From an uncultured delta proteobacterium (GTDB lineage Bacteria; Desulfobacterota; Syntrophorhabdia; Syntrophorhabdales; WCHB1-27): a stretch of DNA of 64,000 bases. Under the pieces are notes generated by a model. It ran no database searches. It saw nothing but the letters and a program-made list of their open reading frames with translations, and was not told the DNA's origin. Where the stretch lies: the NCBI GenBank assembly GCA_963825005.1, contig CAWGRP010000007.1, positions 104,045 to 168,044 on the forward strand, given 5' to 3'. Below, piece by piece: positions 27,734-39,262 of the stretch (position 1 is the stretch's first letter; the number at the start of each line of letters is the position of its first letter). A program made the position numbers and the translations under genes.

Positions 27734-28024
27734 ATGAATAGAAGGCTTTCAACGCTAAAAATCTTTTCGATTCTCTTTATCAGTCTGTTACTCATGGCTA
27801 TATCCGGGGTCCACTCATCTCTCGTCGCCGAGGACGATATCAGCGTGACCAGGGACGATGACAAGACAGTCTATTCAATTGATGGCGGAGATGACGCCAG
27901 AAGACAACAGGAAAGAGAGAGGGACCAGGCCATCGATATGCTCAAGAACATGCCTGTCATAATCGATGGCAGGAGAGGTCAACCCCTGCCGCCCAGGCCC
28001 GTGCAGCCCACACCGGGCAACTAA
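27734..28024 (+). CDS. small secreted hypothetical protein
   Basis: 96 aa with signal peptide (LKIFSILFISLLLMAISGV), acidic then Pro-rich tail. GAAGGTG RBS. Its TAA is the target duplication of repeat A4. Confidence 0.55.
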   Translation: MNRRLSTLKIFSILFISLLLMAISGVHSSLVAEDDISVTRDDDKTVYSIDGGDDARRQQERERDQAIDMLKNMPVIIDGRRGQPLPPRPVQPTPGN

Positions 28025-28148
28025 TACCGATTTGCCTTCAAGTGTATACCTTCGTTGTCGCTACGTCGCTCTCCTCGACGTACCCCAAGGTACGCCTTCG
28101 TCGGCTCCTCGCTGCCGCCTCGCTCTCCATCTTGAATGCAAATCGGTA
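28025..28148 (-). mobile_element. family-A MITE-like element, copy A4 (short subtype)
   Basis: TIRs TACCGATTTGCCTTCAAG / CTTGAATGCAAATCGGTA, flanked by TAA 28022-28024 and TAA 28149-28151. Confidence 0.85.
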
Positions 28149-28181
28149 TAAGCATAGCTGTTTGAATTCTCTCTGGCCTCC

Positions 28182-29354: not shown

Positions 29355-29504
29355 CAGCGGTTTGCATTCAAGATGGATGACCCAGCCGCCGGCCGGGTGC
29401 CCCAGGCGCGCCGAGGGCTCACGCAGCGGAGGCGTACCTTGGGGTACGTTGACGCGGAACAGGCCGAAGGGCAACGAAGGTAGGCGCTTGAAGGCAAACG
29501 GCAG
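29355..29504 (+). mobile_element. family-A element, copy A5 (long subtype)
   Basis: CAGCGGTTTGCATTCAAGATGGATGACCCAGCC...GGAGGCGTACCTTGGGGTACGTTGACG...GGGCAACGAAGGTAGGCGCTTGAAGGCAAACGGCAG. Confidence 0.75.
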
Positions 29505-29630
29505 CCGGTTTGGATTCAAGATGATTACCGAGGCGCGCCGAGGGCTGGGCAGCGGAGGCGTACCTTGGTGTACGTTGACGCGGAACAGGCCGAAGGGCAA
29601 CGAAGGTAGGCGCTTGAAGGCAAACCGGTG
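29505..29630 (+). mobile_element. family-A element, copy A6 (tandem to A5, internally shortened)
   Basis: CCGGTTTGGATTCAAGATGA...GGAGGCGTACCTTGGTGTACGTTGACG...CTTGAAGGCAAACCGGTG. It ends one base before the TTA (TAA on the minus strand) stop of 29631..30287. Confidence 0.75.
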
Positions 29631-30287
29631 TTACTTCGCGCTTCGCGGAAGGATTGCTATCTCTCCATAATCCCCGACTGCACGGGAATTGGTATTGTCT
29701 GCATCGGTCAGAATGCCGATCCCGATTGCATTCGGATTTTTCTTTTTCCCAAAGAAGCGCTCATAGTCAGAAAGCACATCGCGTTCTTCCGTGAGCCAGG
29801 TGCCGGCCTGCGCTCTCCCGCTGCGAATGACGATCATCTTTGAGCCGCTTGAAAAAGGAGAATCGAAGGCGGCTCCCACCGGCTGCGTGTCGCTCCATAT
29901 GTACTTGATAGATTTAACGAACGGGAGACCGCTCAGTACCACGTAGAGGCCGAGAACGCTGTCGTTCCCTTTTTTTATCCGCTCGTCTGACCCTTCGGGA
30001 AACGTGACGGCTCTCCACTGCCAACGCAGCATCGGATACTCACTCAGGTCCCATTTCTTCTCGTAACTGATCTGCACCGACAGGCCACGCGCGTCAGCGT
30101 GGAGAAACTTCTTTTCACCCTCGGCCTGCACCGAATAAACCTTTGCGGCCTCTTCCTGATCTTTCGCTCTCCAATTCGACGGAAATTTTCCGACCTCATT
30201 CTGCTCGAACGTCACCTGAATGGGCTGTTGGGCAAAGAGGGTATGTGCCATAAAAACGATAAAAAGAGCAGCAAGTATAGGTTTCAT
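29631..30287 (-). CDS. secreted DUF3047 domain protein
   Basis: Signal peptide MKPILAALFIVFMAHTLFA. The blocks LRWQWRAVTFPEG...GNDSVLGLYVV...YIWS...ILTDADNTNSRAVGDYGEI match my recollection of DUF3047. Confidence 0.7.
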   Translation of the reverse strand: MKPILAALFIVFMAHTLFAQQPIQVTFEQNEVGKFPSNWRAKDQEEAAKVYSVQAEGEKKFLHADARGLSVQISYEKKWDLSEYPMLRWQWRAVTFPEGSDERIKKGNDSVLGLYVVLSGLPFVKSIKYIWSDTQPVGAAFDSPFSSGSKMIVIRSGRAQAGTWLTEERDVLSDYERFFGKKKNPNAIGIGILTDADNTNSRAVGDYGEIAILPRSAK

Positions 30288-31688: not shown

Positions 31689-31932
31689 AGACAAGGCTTT
31701 TTCATCGCCGATAAAAGCTGATAAGGGCTATGATGAACGCCGATAAGATATTTTGACCGCCTGTGTGATACAGCGCCACAGCCGGTCAACCCCGATCCGC
31801 TTCGCGGACGGTGATACTCTCGCGGGAGCGACGGGGTGTGGACAGCATTGATGTTGTATCAGAATGCTGTCCACCGGCAAACCCATCTGCGTACATCTCT
31901 CTTTGCTCTTATCTGCGTACATCTGCGATAAA
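31689..31932 (-). mobile_element. family-B structured element, copy B1
   Basis: The reverse complement starts TTTATCGCAGATGTACGCAGATAAGAGC and ends TTTATCGGCGATGAAAAAGCCTTGTCT. It contains the hairpin GTGGACAGCATT...AATGCTGTCCAC and the hairpin GACCGGCTGTG...CACAGGCGGTC. Confidence 0.8.
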
Positions 31933-35124: not shown

Positions 35125-35363
35125 TTTATCGCAGATGTGCGCAGATAGAAGCCAAGAGAGATATACGCAGATGGCGTTTGACCGTGTCCAGCATTGTGAT
35201 ACAACGTCAATGCTGGACACACTCCGTCGCTCCCGCGAGAGTATCACCGTCCGCGAAGCGGATCAGGGTTGACCGGCTGTGCCGCTCTATCGCACAGGCG
35301 GTCAAAGATAAACTATCCGCGCTTATCGTAGTAGCCCTTATCCGTCTTGATCTGCGATGAAAA
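35125..35363 (+). mobile_element. family-B structured element, copy B2
   Basis: Starts TTTATCGCAGATGTGCGCAGATAGAAGCC. Contains the 13-bp hairpin 35184-35220 and the hairpin 35271-35303. Ends CCCTTATCCGTCTTGATCTGCGATGAAAA. Confidence 0.8.
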
Positions 35364-35400: not shown

Positions 35401-37182
35401 GTGAACGGAGCAGAGCTTCTGGTTGGAACCGCCCGCGCACTCGGTATTGACGTCTGTTTTGCGAACGCGGGCACAACCGAAATACCGATCGTAATGGCGC
35501 TTGATACAGTGAAGGGGATCAGGGCTATCCTCGGGATCTTTGAAGGTGTCTGCACAGGCGCTGCAGACGGATACGGACGGATGACCGGCAGACCGGCCAT
35601 GGCACTTCTGCATCTGGGTCCGGGATTTGCGAACGGCATCGCAAACTTGCACGACGCGCGAAGAGCTGCTACGCCTCTCGTCAATGTTATCGGTCAGCAT
35701 GCTACATGGCACCAGAGCGCAGATCCACCACTCGCGATGGACATCGAGAGCCTGGCCCGCACCGTGTCGGGTTGGGTGCGGACGAGCACATCGGTGGAGA
35801 AACTTTCCAGAGATATGAACGATGCGATCAACGCATCTCTTTTTGGACAGGTGTCGAGTCTCATTGTCCCCCATGATCTTCAACTGGCTGACGCCATGGA
35901 CAACGGTATAGACCTCACGCCTTTCTCGTTCGCGCCGGTCAATGCAGATGTGATCGATAAGGCGGCACGACGGATTCGGGCGGCACAAAAATCGGCATTG
36001 CTTCTCGACGGAAGGGCGCTGAGCAAACCCGGCCTGCACGCTGCTTCACGCATAAGAACGAAATGCAAGTGCAACCTTTTTGCACCTTCCTTTTTTTCCT
36101 GCATGGAACGCGGTGTGGGTTTGCCGGACGTGCAGCGCATCCCCTATTTTCCTGAAGAGGCTATATCTCTTTTGTCCGGCTATGATCTTGTAGTGATAGT
36201 CAATGCGCACGAGCCGGTGACCTTTTTTGGTTATCCCGGTGTTCGGGGTCATATCTTGAGTGACCAACAGCAGAAGCTCTATCTGTGTGAAGGAAGAGAA
36301 GATCCGGTTGAGGCACTTGCTGCCCTCGCCGACGCGCTCGATGCTCCGACCTCACCTGTTCCTGAGAGACCTTCGCCCCGCGCAGCGCTTCCTCATGGCG
36401 CGCTCACAGCAGAGAAGGCTTGTCTCACGGTTGCAGCCATCCAGCCGGAACAGGCAATCATTGTGGATGAGGGGATCACCAGCGGTTTTACTTTTTATCC
36501 GCTCACCGCATTCTCTCCCCCGCACACGTTCCTGACTATCGCGGGAGGTTCAATCGGATACGGGATGCCGTGTGCTACAGGTGCTGCCATTGCGTGCCCT
36601 GATCGCCCCGTGATCAATTTTCAGGCAGACGGAAGCGCCCTGTATACAGCCCAGGCCCTCTGGACACAGGCAAGGGAAGGATTGCACGTCATCACTTTAA
36701 TCTGCTCCAACAGGAGCTATAATATTCTCAAGCTGGAGCTTTCCCGTGCAGGCCTTACATCCTTTGGAGATAATGCCAGGAACCTGACAGAGCTGGATGC
36801 TCCCCCCATCGATTGGATCAGCCTTGCGCGGGGCTTTGGTGTGCCTGCCACGTCCGTCGATACTGCGGAGCGACTTGCGCAGGAGCTGGCCGCAGGTGTG
36901 GCAGAGCCCGGCCCGAGGCTCATCGAGATGGTACTGCATGTAAGACGATTTTTATCGCAGATGTACGCAGATAAGGACGAAGAGAGATGTACGCAGATGA
37001 GTTTGACCGTGTCCAGCATCGCGATACTGCGGCAATGCTGGACACAATTCAGTCGCTCCGCGCAAGGGTGTCACCGTCCGCGAAGCGGCTGCGGGTTGAC
37101 CGGCTGTGGCGCTGTATCACACAGGCGGTCAAAAATTGTATCGGCGTTTATCGTAGCCCTTATCAGCTTTTATCGGCGATGA
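35401..37182 (+). CDS. thiamine pyrophosphate-dependent enzyme (acetolactate synthase large-subunit-like), with its 3' end running into repeat B3
   Basis: N-terminal TPP-pyrimidine domain and C-terminal GGSIGYGMP...QADGSALY...N TPP motif. A family-typical end (...PGPRLIEMVL) is reached near 36935, but the frame stays open for ~77 further codons inside B3. Confidence 0.8.
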   Translation: MNGAELLVGTARALGIDVCFANAGTTEIPIVMALDTVKGIRAILGIFEGVCTGAADGYGRMTGRPAMALLHLGPGFANGIANLHDARRAATPLVNVIGQHATWHQSADPPLAMDIESLARTVSGWVRTSTSVEKLSRDMNDAINASLFGQVSSLIVPHDLQLADAMDNGIDLTPFSFAPVNADVIDKAARRIRAAQKSALLLDGRALSKPGLHAASRIRTKCKCNLFAPSFFSCMERGVGLPDVQRIPYFPEEAISLLSGYDLVVIVNAHEPVTFFGYPGVRGHILSDQQQKLYLCEGREDPVEALAALADALDAPTSPVPERPSPRAALPHGALTAEKACLTVAAIQPEQAIIVDEGITSGFTFYPLTAFSPPHTFLTIAGGSIGYGMPCATGAAIACPDRPVINFQADGSALYTAQALWTQAREGLHVITLICSNRSYNILKLELSRAGLTSFGDNARNLTELDAPPIDWISLARGFGVPATSVDTAERLAQELAAGVAEPGPRLIEMVLHVRRFLSQMYADKDEERCTQMSLTVSSIAILRQCWTQFSRSAQGCHRPRSGCGLTGCGAVSHRRSKIVSAFIVALISFYRR

Positions 37183-37195
37183 AAAAGCCTTGTCT
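36951..37195 (+). mobile_element. family-B structured element, copy B3
   Basis: Starts TTTATCGCAGATGTACGCAGATAAGGACG and ends TTTATCGGCGATGAAAAAGCCTTGTCT. Same hairpins as B2. Confidence 0.8.
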
Positions 37196-37264
37196 TGAGA
37201 AGCGGGTGGTGACTGACAGTTGTCGCAAAGTTTACATAACTCCATAGCGACATTGGAGGAGAAG

Positions 37265-38047
37265 ATGAAAGAGATGATCGATCAGGCAGCCGAATGGATC
37301 GCACACGCAAAGGCGGTTGTCGTGTTTGCGGGAGCCGGCCTCAGCACCGAATCGGGAATACCTGACTTCAGGAGCCCCGGAGGCGTATGGGACCGGTACA
37401 ATCCCGAAGATTTCTATTTCCAGAACTTCCTTGCCAGCGAAGCGTCCAGAGAGAAATACTGGCAGATGGCAACCGAGATGTATGAGCCCATGAAGAAAGC
37501 CCAGCCTAACGCGGCCCACCTGGCAATCGCCGAGCTCGAAATTCTGGGCAAACTTGATAGCGTCATCACGCAGAATATAGACGGGCTCCATCACAAGGCC
37601 GGCAATTCGGAAGGAAAGATCATCGAGCTTCACGGCACTGCCACCTATGTCTCCTGTTTGAGCTGCAAGAAAAGATATGACCGCGATGCCATTCAAGAAC
37701 GAGTACGCAAAGGTGAGAAGGCTCCGCGCTGCGACAGTTGCGGCGGTTTACTCAAACCCGCCACGATCTCCTTCGGACAGGCAATGCCGGAGAGGGAAAC
37801 AGAAGAAGCGTACCGACGGTCCGCAGCGTGCGATCTCTTCATTGTAGTCGGTTCGTCGCTCGTGGTTCAGCCGGCAGCGTCAATGCCGCTTATTGCAAAA
37901 CGGAGCGGCTCAAAGCTCGTGATCATAAACCGCGACGAGACGCCGCTGGATGATCTCGCCGATCTTGTGATACGCGGGCAGGCCGGCCCGGTGATGGCGG
38001 CCATTCTCGAGGTAACCAAAAAGAGAATGAGGATAGGCCTCGCGTAG
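37265..38047 (+). CDS. cobB: NAD-dependent protein deacylase, SIR2 family
   Basis: GAGLSTESGIPDFRS, QNIDGLH and HG motifs, and a Zn ribbon CLSC...CDSCGG. ATG 37265 is preceded by GGAGGAG. Confidence 0.88.
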   Translation: MKEMIDQAAEWIAHAKAVVVFAGAGLSTESGIPDFRSPGGVWDRYNPEDFYFQNFLASEASREKYWQMATEMYEPMKKAQPNAAHLAIAELEILGKLDSVITQNIDGLHHKAGNSEGKIIELHGTATYVSCLSCKKRYDRDAIQERVRKGEKAPRCDSCGGLLKPATISFGQAMPERETEEAYRRSAACDLFIVVGSSLVVQPAASMPLIAKRSGSKLVIINRDETPLDDLADLVIRGQAGPVMAAILEVTKKRMRIGLA

Positions 38048-39010: not shown

Positions 39011-39262
39011 CTTATCGCCGATGTACGCAGATAAAGGCCAAGAGAGATATACGCAGATGAGTTTGCCTGTGGACAGCATTGTGATACAGCGTCAATGCTG
39101 TTCATCCACCCGCACGCGGGTACCCGGTCGCTCCCGCGAGACTATCACCGTCCGCGAAGCGGATCGGGGTTGAACGGCTGTGCCGCTCTATCGCACAGGC
39201 GGTCAAAGATAAACTATCCGCTCTTATCGTAGTAGCCCTTATCCGCTTTAATCTGCGATAAA
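39011..39262 (+). mobile_element. family-B structured element, copy B4 (with extra internal hairpin)
   Basis: Starts CTTATCGCCGATGTACGCAGATAAAGGCC and ends CCCTTATCCGCTTTAATCTGCGATAAA. The hairpin-1 3' arm carries a 4-nt bulge, and an inserted ACCCGCACGCGGGT hairpin follows. Confidence 0.8.

Follow-up and report, generated by a model that had tools for sequence, protein, structure and literature searches.

Family B repeats in the window and in the genome

The window analysed here is a 64,000-nucleotide stretch of DNA from an uncultured delta proteobacterium and is part of contig 7 of an assembly of 6.17 Mb in 34 contigs (G000). Among its genes, which include an aminotransferase, a NUDIX and a TPP-enzyme gene, are four copies (B1 to B4) of a dispersed intergenic repeat, here termed family B (Table 1). 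The four copies align over ~250 bp with a mean column identity of 82%, B1 being inverted. When a profile of these copies was run against the genome, 90 full-length copies and about 30 fragments were found, a count that is inflated by at least one, as C22:82666-82922 and C23:11909-12167 are one locus with the same flanks assembled twice. Full copies measure 240-345 bp. Within the genus, four of five genomes contain family B, with fewer copies than in G000, and outside it the repeat is rare; the named records that contain the hairpin described below are metagenome-assembled genomes labelled Syntrophobacterales and Syntrophorhabdales.

The conserved ~240-bp core of family B contains four local stem-loops, one of which is hairpin 1, and is an old inverted duplication. 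Each half consists of three CGCAGAT-type repeats and, after them, a stem-loop whose loop is TGATA (TGTGATA), and two small hairpins occupy the middle. Because the core is an inverted duplication, hairpins 1 and 2 are homologous in mirror orientation, with stems that are now entirely different. A survey of the copies revealed no consistent open frame, since copy lengths modulo 3 take all three values and, of 80 copies, only 39 have the best sense frame open; a coding reading of the core was thereby ruled out, and the variable stem positions would alter codon positions 1-2. Within the window, the TPP-enzyme frame (35401-37182) lacks a stop at ~36945, the end typical of its family, and reads through for ~77 codons into B3, in a sense frame that is open in about half of all family B copies. 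Another repeat, family A, brackets a two-gene unit at 28019-28152 and 29355-29636 of the window.

A preliminary description of this DNA had given stem sequences and coordinates for hairpin 1 in the four copies, and these were borne out at every position. Stem pairs 4 and 5 are G:C and A:T in B1 and B4 versus T:A and C:G in B2 and B3. The swap of these two pairs does involve both arms, as had been proposed, but the stem does not stay perfect throughout, as position 12 of the B3 stem is a C.A mismatch. Similarly, the extra bases of a 4-nt bulge reported for B4 are present, but they are the start of a nested ~19-nt mini-insert (39107-39125). Taken without the bulge, the right arm of B4 reads AATGCTGTTCAT, which gives two G.T pairs.

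Table 1. Features of the four family B copies, in positions of the window
Feature	Position	Strand	Description
B1 core	31698..31932	-	reverse orientation; directly upstream of minus-strand aminotransferase gene
B1 hairpin 1	31838..31874	-	GTGGACAGCATT / AATGCTGTCCAC; haplotype GA; 12 perfect pairs
B2 core	35125..35363	+	between NUDIX gene stop and TPP-enzyme gene start
B2 hairpin 1	35184..35220	+	GTGTCCAGCAT / ATGCTGGACAC; haplotype TC; perfect 13-bp stem
B2 hairpin 2	35269..35305	+	TTGACCGGCTGTG / CACAGGCGGTCAA; central G.G; mirror-orientation homologue of hairpin 1; covaries too
B3 core	36950..37186	+	TPP-enzyme frame continues into B3
B3 hairpin 1	37009..37045	+	GTGTCCAGCAT / ATGCTGGACAC; haplotype TC; C.A mismatch at position 12
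B4 core	39011..39262	+	
B4 hairpin 1	39069..39109	+	GTGGACAGCATT / AATGCTGT[TCAT]CCAC; left arm GA, right arm disturbed
Mini-insert CACCCGCACGCGGGTACCC	39107-39125	+	directly 3' of B4 hairpin 1; ~19 nt; causes apparent 4-nt bulge

Outer ends and target duplications

Family B is a new family and is a MITE, as shown by the outer inverted repeats (GGTAYTGTCAAA) and the target duplications of 8 bp in its young subfamilies. These subfamilies extend past both sides of the core by ~40 nt, as far as GGTA(C/T)TGTCAAAAG ... TTTGACAATACC. Duplications of 8 bp were observed at 6-7 of the nine copies that keep both outer ends (e.g. AAACAAGA, GCAACGAA, and ATGCGAAT), whereas most copies are without a detectable duplication and none was found at the core borders at any offset. 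The duplications belong to the outer ends. A recognisable outer end is retained in about 18 of 80 copies, while the inner ATCGCAGAT-type mirrored ends are present in all of them. Decayed outer ends were sought in old copies; the left side gave a weak signal (p=0.002), the right side none. It is likely that the outer ends decayed in old copies while the core was kept, although copies without recognisable outer ends could also never have had them.

Comparison with sister genomes identified both filled and empty sites. A copy with outer ends in G004 fills a site that is empty in G000 (C8:868959-869020), and at the B2 site all five sister genomes are without the element, having instead 40-110 bp of unrelated sequence or, in one of them, an unrelated ~230-bp palindromic repeat. 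The B3 site (window 36945-37265) is occupied in four sister genomes (L062-L065) by a different palindromic repeat composed of GGTCTAT.../GACCAGATAGAC iterations, and in G004 (L066) by a 32-bp remnant, TTTGTCGCAGATGTAATTATCTGTGATGAAGA, which is two family B ends fused. The G004 orthologue of C30:118841 is a similar ends-only derivative. A search of this assembly for an autonomous partner found no pair of outer ends 0.4-3 kb apart; many accepted MITE families likewise have no known autonomous partner. Additionally, other MITEs in G000 (C13:64908-65165, C18:12994-13231, and C18:62192-62496) have the outer ends of family B (GGTATTGTCAAA...TTTGACAATACC) and 8-bp duplications around unrelated, strongly palindromic cores. 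Judged by these ends, the elements look like a superfamily with one common set of transposase ends.

Covariation in the internal hairpins

The paired base swaps had been interpreted in the preliminary description as a signature of selection on secondary structure, to be checked by collecting and aligning the copies and computing covariation statistics. This analysis was run on 84 genomic hairpins, and it supports that interpretation, with pairing far above chance. Perfect 13-bp stems were found in 35 of the 84 hairpins versus 6.5 expected with arms shuffled among copies (maximum of 14 in 2000 shuffles). For the 63 distinct hairpins, with a shuffle control that takes no account of kinship among copies, 95.4% of cells are paired versus 87.4% in shuffles, and 51 cells are changed on both sides versus 10.3 in shuffles, with 0/500 shuffles as high in each case; such two-sided changes affect nine of the 13 stem pairs. 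When the partner was moved by 1-3 columns (slide control), pairing was only 24-51%.

Ten of the 13 stem pairs of hairpin 1 and its TGATA loop are nearly invariant, and positions 4, 5, and 7 vary yet stay paired. Pair 4 occurs as G:C, U:A, A:U, and C:G, pair 5 as A:U, C:G, U:A, and G:C, and pair 7 as A:U, U:A, and rarely G:C. The variability of positions 4 and 5 is about equal to that of the flanks outside the element, whereas the remaining stem positions have near-zero entropy. Positions 4, 5, and 7 carry no sequence information and need only pair, drifting through all four types of Watson-Crick pair by compensation. In the consensus fold of the copies, hairpin 2 and the two small central hairpins covary likewise (local hairpins, z 5-11), while end-to-end pairing of the terminal repeats (an 'outer stem') shows no covariation. 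Pairing in the internal hairpins is maintained, with compensatory changes falling at positions that are neutral in sequence.

Not all stems are intact. At least one mismatch is present in 49 of the 84 (58%), and only 42% are perfect. Uncompensated intermediates, which the preliminary description had considered might be equally common, are nevertheless outnumbered at both of the swapped pairs, with compensated non-consensus cells numbering 14 and 20 versus 8 and 13 unpaired cells; it is among whole stems that mismatches are frequent. The non-Watson-Crick cells of hairpin 1 comprise 13-14 G.U versus 13-16 A.C, with no wobble excess, and its mismatches are mostly pyrimidine-pyrimidine or purine-purine (transversion-type). 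Pair switches are predominantly of the transversion type as well. On the sense strand of hairpin 2, G.U outnumbers A.C by 12 to 1. A wobble excess is expected of a classic RNA helix. Stem pairing quality did not differ between sense-operon and other contexts in the small samples compared.

Descent of the stem haplotypes

If the swapped pairs reflected subfamily descent, as the preliminary description had put against its own reading, only two stem haplotypes would be expected. Instead, at least 12 perfectly paired haplotypes occur at positions 4-5(-7): GA, TC, TT, GC, AC, GG, AA, TG, CC, AG, CG..T, and GT..T. These are dispersed on a copy tree that was built from the element without the hairpin and in which only 7 of 81 branches are well supported, with TC appearing at five separate points, TT at three, and GC at three. 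For instance, B1 (GA) is the sister of B3 (TC), with a support of 94. The GTCT haplotype largely corresponds to a recent clade of near-identical copies, and hybrid stems, with a TC left arm and a GA-type right arm, are present in 3-4 copies. In tree-controlled contrasts, the partner changed the same way about 3.3, 3.1, and 4.8 times at positions 4, 5, and 7, respectively, and in the opposite way essentially 0 times; with ~11 contrasts in total these are underpowered, and p<0.05 is out of reach for any single position.

Compensated changes are also observed between species. Eight positional orthologues of family B copies were found, and their hairpins 1 show six fully compensated pair differences alongside about ten single uncompensated changes. 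For instance, position 5 is C:G versus A:T among the orthologues of C19:363598 and G:C versus A:T among those of C19:40638. Similarly, in hairpin 1 of C29:401487, position 12 changes from T:A to G:C in G003 and positions 3-5 change from GGA/TCC to TCC/GGA in G001, and hairpin 2 of this copy has four more compensated pairs between orthologues. Column identity between orthologues is 95% for low-entropy (paralogue-invariant) columns and 50% for high-entropy columns, and the share of core columns conserved across positional orthologues is ~45%. At variable columns, the identity of random paralogues is 0.45 versus 0.50 for positional orthologues. Since orthologues are thus no more alike than paralogues at these columns, in-place divergence rests on saturation and a few shared copy-specific motifs, and repeated insertion or gene conversion could also be a source of the orthologue differences.

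Orientation and gene context

Between co-directional genes, 62 copies are in sense orientation versus 3 in antisense, a bias that suggests co-transcription of the element. Orientation tracks the genes on both replication strands (lagging, 14:1; leading, 32:2), and the bias of the element relative to GC skew is no greater than that of genes. A replication-strand cause was therefore ruled out; as orientation follows the genes whichever replication strand they are on, the bias is tied to transcription. The right end of the element lies a median of 53 nt upstream of the next start codon, and the left end a median of 30 nt downstream of the previous stop codon.

Neither a sigma-70 promoter nor an intrinsic terminator was found in the copies. 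Interpreting TGGACAGCATTG as a sigma-54 site was ruled out by eye, the spacing being off by two and the 'GG' lying on the variable pair. Searches against Rfam 15 gave no match at gathering thresholds in the whole window, and copy B2 (E up to 10) gave only chance-level matches with E>1.

Two further candidates were considered and rejected. An integron attC reading was prompted by the co-oriented arrays and by a toxin-antitoxin cassette region with fragments: at a G000 contig end (C29:449000-459653), family B fragments lie between small co-oriented toxin-antitoxin-type genes (PIN, DUF433/DUF5615, nucleotidyltransferase/HEPN, and bAvd-like). The core sites of attC are RYYYAAC / GTTRRRY, a consensus that GTTGACC and GGTCAAA do not fit, and the placement of family B copies between housekeeping genes also counts against this reading. 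The sole integron-integrase-like gene (TIGR02249; C19:360246-361164) is split over two frames (201 + 205 bits) and has no family B array beside it. The second candidate, a RAYT/IS200 partner, was rejected in that none of four PF01797 (Y1) genes has family B motifs nearby; three of the four are IS-like copies that are 97-99% identical.

Possible functions of the conserved hairpin

The explanation favoured here, for which the chances appear about even, is that hairpin 1 is a structure-constrained recognition hairpin in a MITE core that probably acts in co-transcribed RNA. The ten nearly invariant pairs and the loop point to sequence-specific recognition, and the invariant stem pairs and TGATA loop could be read by some trans-acting factor. 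The core would then be an intergenic structured module that may affect processing, stability, or translation of neighbouring cistrons. RNA is the most likely site of action because of the sense orientation, the position near start codons, the 95% core-column identity, and the outer ends that are mostly unrecognisable. Against this stand the lack of a wobble excess in hairpin 1, the lack of an Rfam, promoter, or terminator match, the figure of only 42% perfect stems, and pairing that, in small samples, is no better in sense operons than in other contexts. Pairing may be selected in RNA or in single-stranded DNA, or may result from templated correction of one arm from the other; single-stranded DNA use and templated arm correction jointly account for about a third of the probability. 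A more specific proposal can be made tentatively, and with considerably less confidence than the general one: the core may be an exapted cis-acting module, with a trans factor that recognises, at ~90 loci, the CGCAGAT repeats as well as those bases of the hairpin stems and loops that do not vary, either in the transcript or in the DNA being transcribed. If this is true, the module would have remained at its loci from a time before the species of this genus diverged, and it would represent, in a lineage of uncultured syntrophs, a post-transcriptional regulon spread by a transposon.

It is possible, although rather unlikely, that the hairpins act instead in single-stranded or cruciform DNA, where they would be recognised by the mobilising or copying enzyme or by another DNA enzyme. 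Pairing would then be selected only in source copies, and copies would be born perfect and decay thereafter. Such birth and decay is consistent with a MITE that has target duplications, with the perfect stems of the GTCT-stem subfamily, which is the youngest (five loci, near-identical, with one assembled twice), with the missing wobble excess in hairpin 1, and with the share of intact pairs at positions 4-5 (74-84%), which is close to neutral decay along terminal branches of ~0.17. The combination of repeats and a hairpin with a conserved loop also resembles the substrates of HUH enzymes. However, mobility is associated with the outer inverted repeats and their 8-bp duplications; this is a DDE-type signature, for which internal hairpins are not required, and the same outer ends are found around unrelated cores. 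The four Y1 (IS200/RAYT-type) genes have no link to the element, orientation tracks transcription and not replication, and the 95% identity of invariant core columns between orthologues is not predicted by birth and decay.

Pairing could also arise with no structural selection, through intrastrand template switching at quasi-palindromes or through gene conversion that imports ready-paired hairpins. Most of the changes are of the transversion type and many span several bases (GA to TC, GGA to TCC), a pattern that stepwise point mutation would not usually give, and the haplotypes are decoupled from the tree of the remaining element; the hybrid stems in 3-4 copies and the lack of a strand-specific wobble signal in hairpin 1 agree with this as well. 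This origin is nonetheless considered unlikely. Templated correction would have to be inefficient, with 58% of stems mismatched and the G.G of hairpin 2 persisting in 37 of 88 copies, and the near-invariance of the other ten pairs and the loop is a real constraint on hairpin 1. Template switching also leaves the sense-orientation bias unexplained.

An inverted repeat may alternatively serve as a double-stranded operator with two identical half-sites for a dimeric DNA-binding protein, and 10 of 13 positions per arm are indeed sequence-conserved and symmetric. Half-sites predict conserved bases or independent drift, however, whereas positions 4, 5, and 7 change in step, and an orientation relative to transcription is unexpected of a symmetric site, which makes this very improbable. 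Chance or the simple descent of two or a few stem haplotypes by subfamily can practically be dismissed: some haplotypes are clearly inherited (the GTCT clade) and the shuffle control ignores relatedness, but the paired haplotypes number at least 12 and several recur in separate parts of the tree, pairing collapses in the slide control, orthologues show compensated changes, and the independent contrasts all point one way.

Comparison with known repeat families

Structured MITEs with compensatory changes are a class that is already known, and family B is new in it. The bcr1 repeats of the Bacillus cereus group are described as transcribed, with a structure kept by compensatory changes (PMC3184786). 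As they are presented there, family B is like them in being a non-autonomous MITE-like repeat (150-250 bp) with target duplications (Klevan 2007; Kristoffersen 2011, in PMC3184786), and in having local stem-loops that are kept by compensatory changes and differ in stability among copies. The two are unlike in sequence, which is unrelated, in host phylum, and in the duplications, which are 5 bp in bcr1 and 8 bp in family B. Moreover, transcription of bcr1 is reported there as experimentally shown, whereas for family B it is the orientation that points to transcription.

Chunjie, of Geobacter uraniireducens Rf4 (Chen 2008, via PMC3184786 and PMC10969869), is similar to family B in its host, a former deltaproteobacterium, and in being an intergenic repeat (178-235 bp). 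According to the same two sources, it is also alike in having dozens of full and partial copies, in occurring in operons without breaking them, and in its very stable predicted fold. In contrast, its terminal repeats are given as 21 bp and its duplications as 9 bp, versus outer repeats of ~13 bp and duplications of 8 bp in family B. This separation is based on published descriptions, and those in PMC3184786 and PMC10969869 report no covariation analysis of Chunjie.

Correia elements (Neisseria) and ERIC (Enterobacteriaceae) are MITEs co-transcribed with neighbouring genes, and their effect on the processing or stability of mRNA (RNase III, RNase E) is partly orientation-dependent (PMC10969869). 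Family B is likewise an intergenic palindromic MITE, but the functional duplex of Correia and ERIC is formed by end-to-end pairing of terminal repeats, whereas family B covaries in internal hairpins only. The proposed action of family B in RNA draws on the analogy to Correia, ERIC, and bcr1 (PMC10969869, PMC3184786). With REP/REPIN-RAYT systems, family B shares two mirror-image hairpin units per element, a high copy number, an intergenic location, and covarying stems. Unlike them, it has no GTAG-type head, its units measure ~110 bp versus ~35 bp, target duplications are present, and no RAYT adjoins any family B copy.

New here are covariation both genome-wide and among orthologues, the 8-bp duplications together with the outer ends, and the link of orientation to transcription. 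The paired hairpins and the ~45% of core columns fixed per locus between species suggest that the repeat is more than selfish filler. Given its orientation with transcription and its place just upstream of start codons, it is a candidate genome-wide cis-regulatory module. Additionally, with positions 4, 5, and 7 varying and the rest fixed, the copies form a natural mutagenesis series that suits the design of structure-function tests.

Mini-inserts nested in the repeats

The ~19-nt mini-insert has the form CACCCGCA(A/C)GCGGGTACCC, which is a small GC hairpin, and occupies 88 sites in G000. It is nested in family B copies, where it lies immediately 3' of hairpin 1, and also in several further repeat families. 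Another mini-insert, of 20-21 nt, reads GTGCGCAGCCTCCTGTAAGGG (variant AGCGAAGCATCCTGTAAGGA) and occurs genome-wide in G000, in none of B1 to B4; examples are found in the copies C9:54126-54417, C29:401487-401785, and C19:40638-40898. It is found exactly at GCAGA^T within the repeats or, in the hairpin 1 loop, at GTGA^TAC, always in one orientation with respect to the motif and with no duplication of the target. Family B copies contain 36 of its 52 genomic sites. The GTGCGCAGCCTCCTGTAAGGG mini-insert is missing from positional orthologues in sister genomes and was therefore gained in place. Insertion of ~20-nt mini-inserts at GCAGA^T without target duplication may represent an undescribed mechanism, in a layer separate from the function of the core. 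In sister genomes, family A hosts both mini-inserts, and in the relatives G002 and G005 the GTGCGCAGCCTCCTGTAAGGG mini-insert has about 190-205 copies each, versus 0 for a reversed control pattern.
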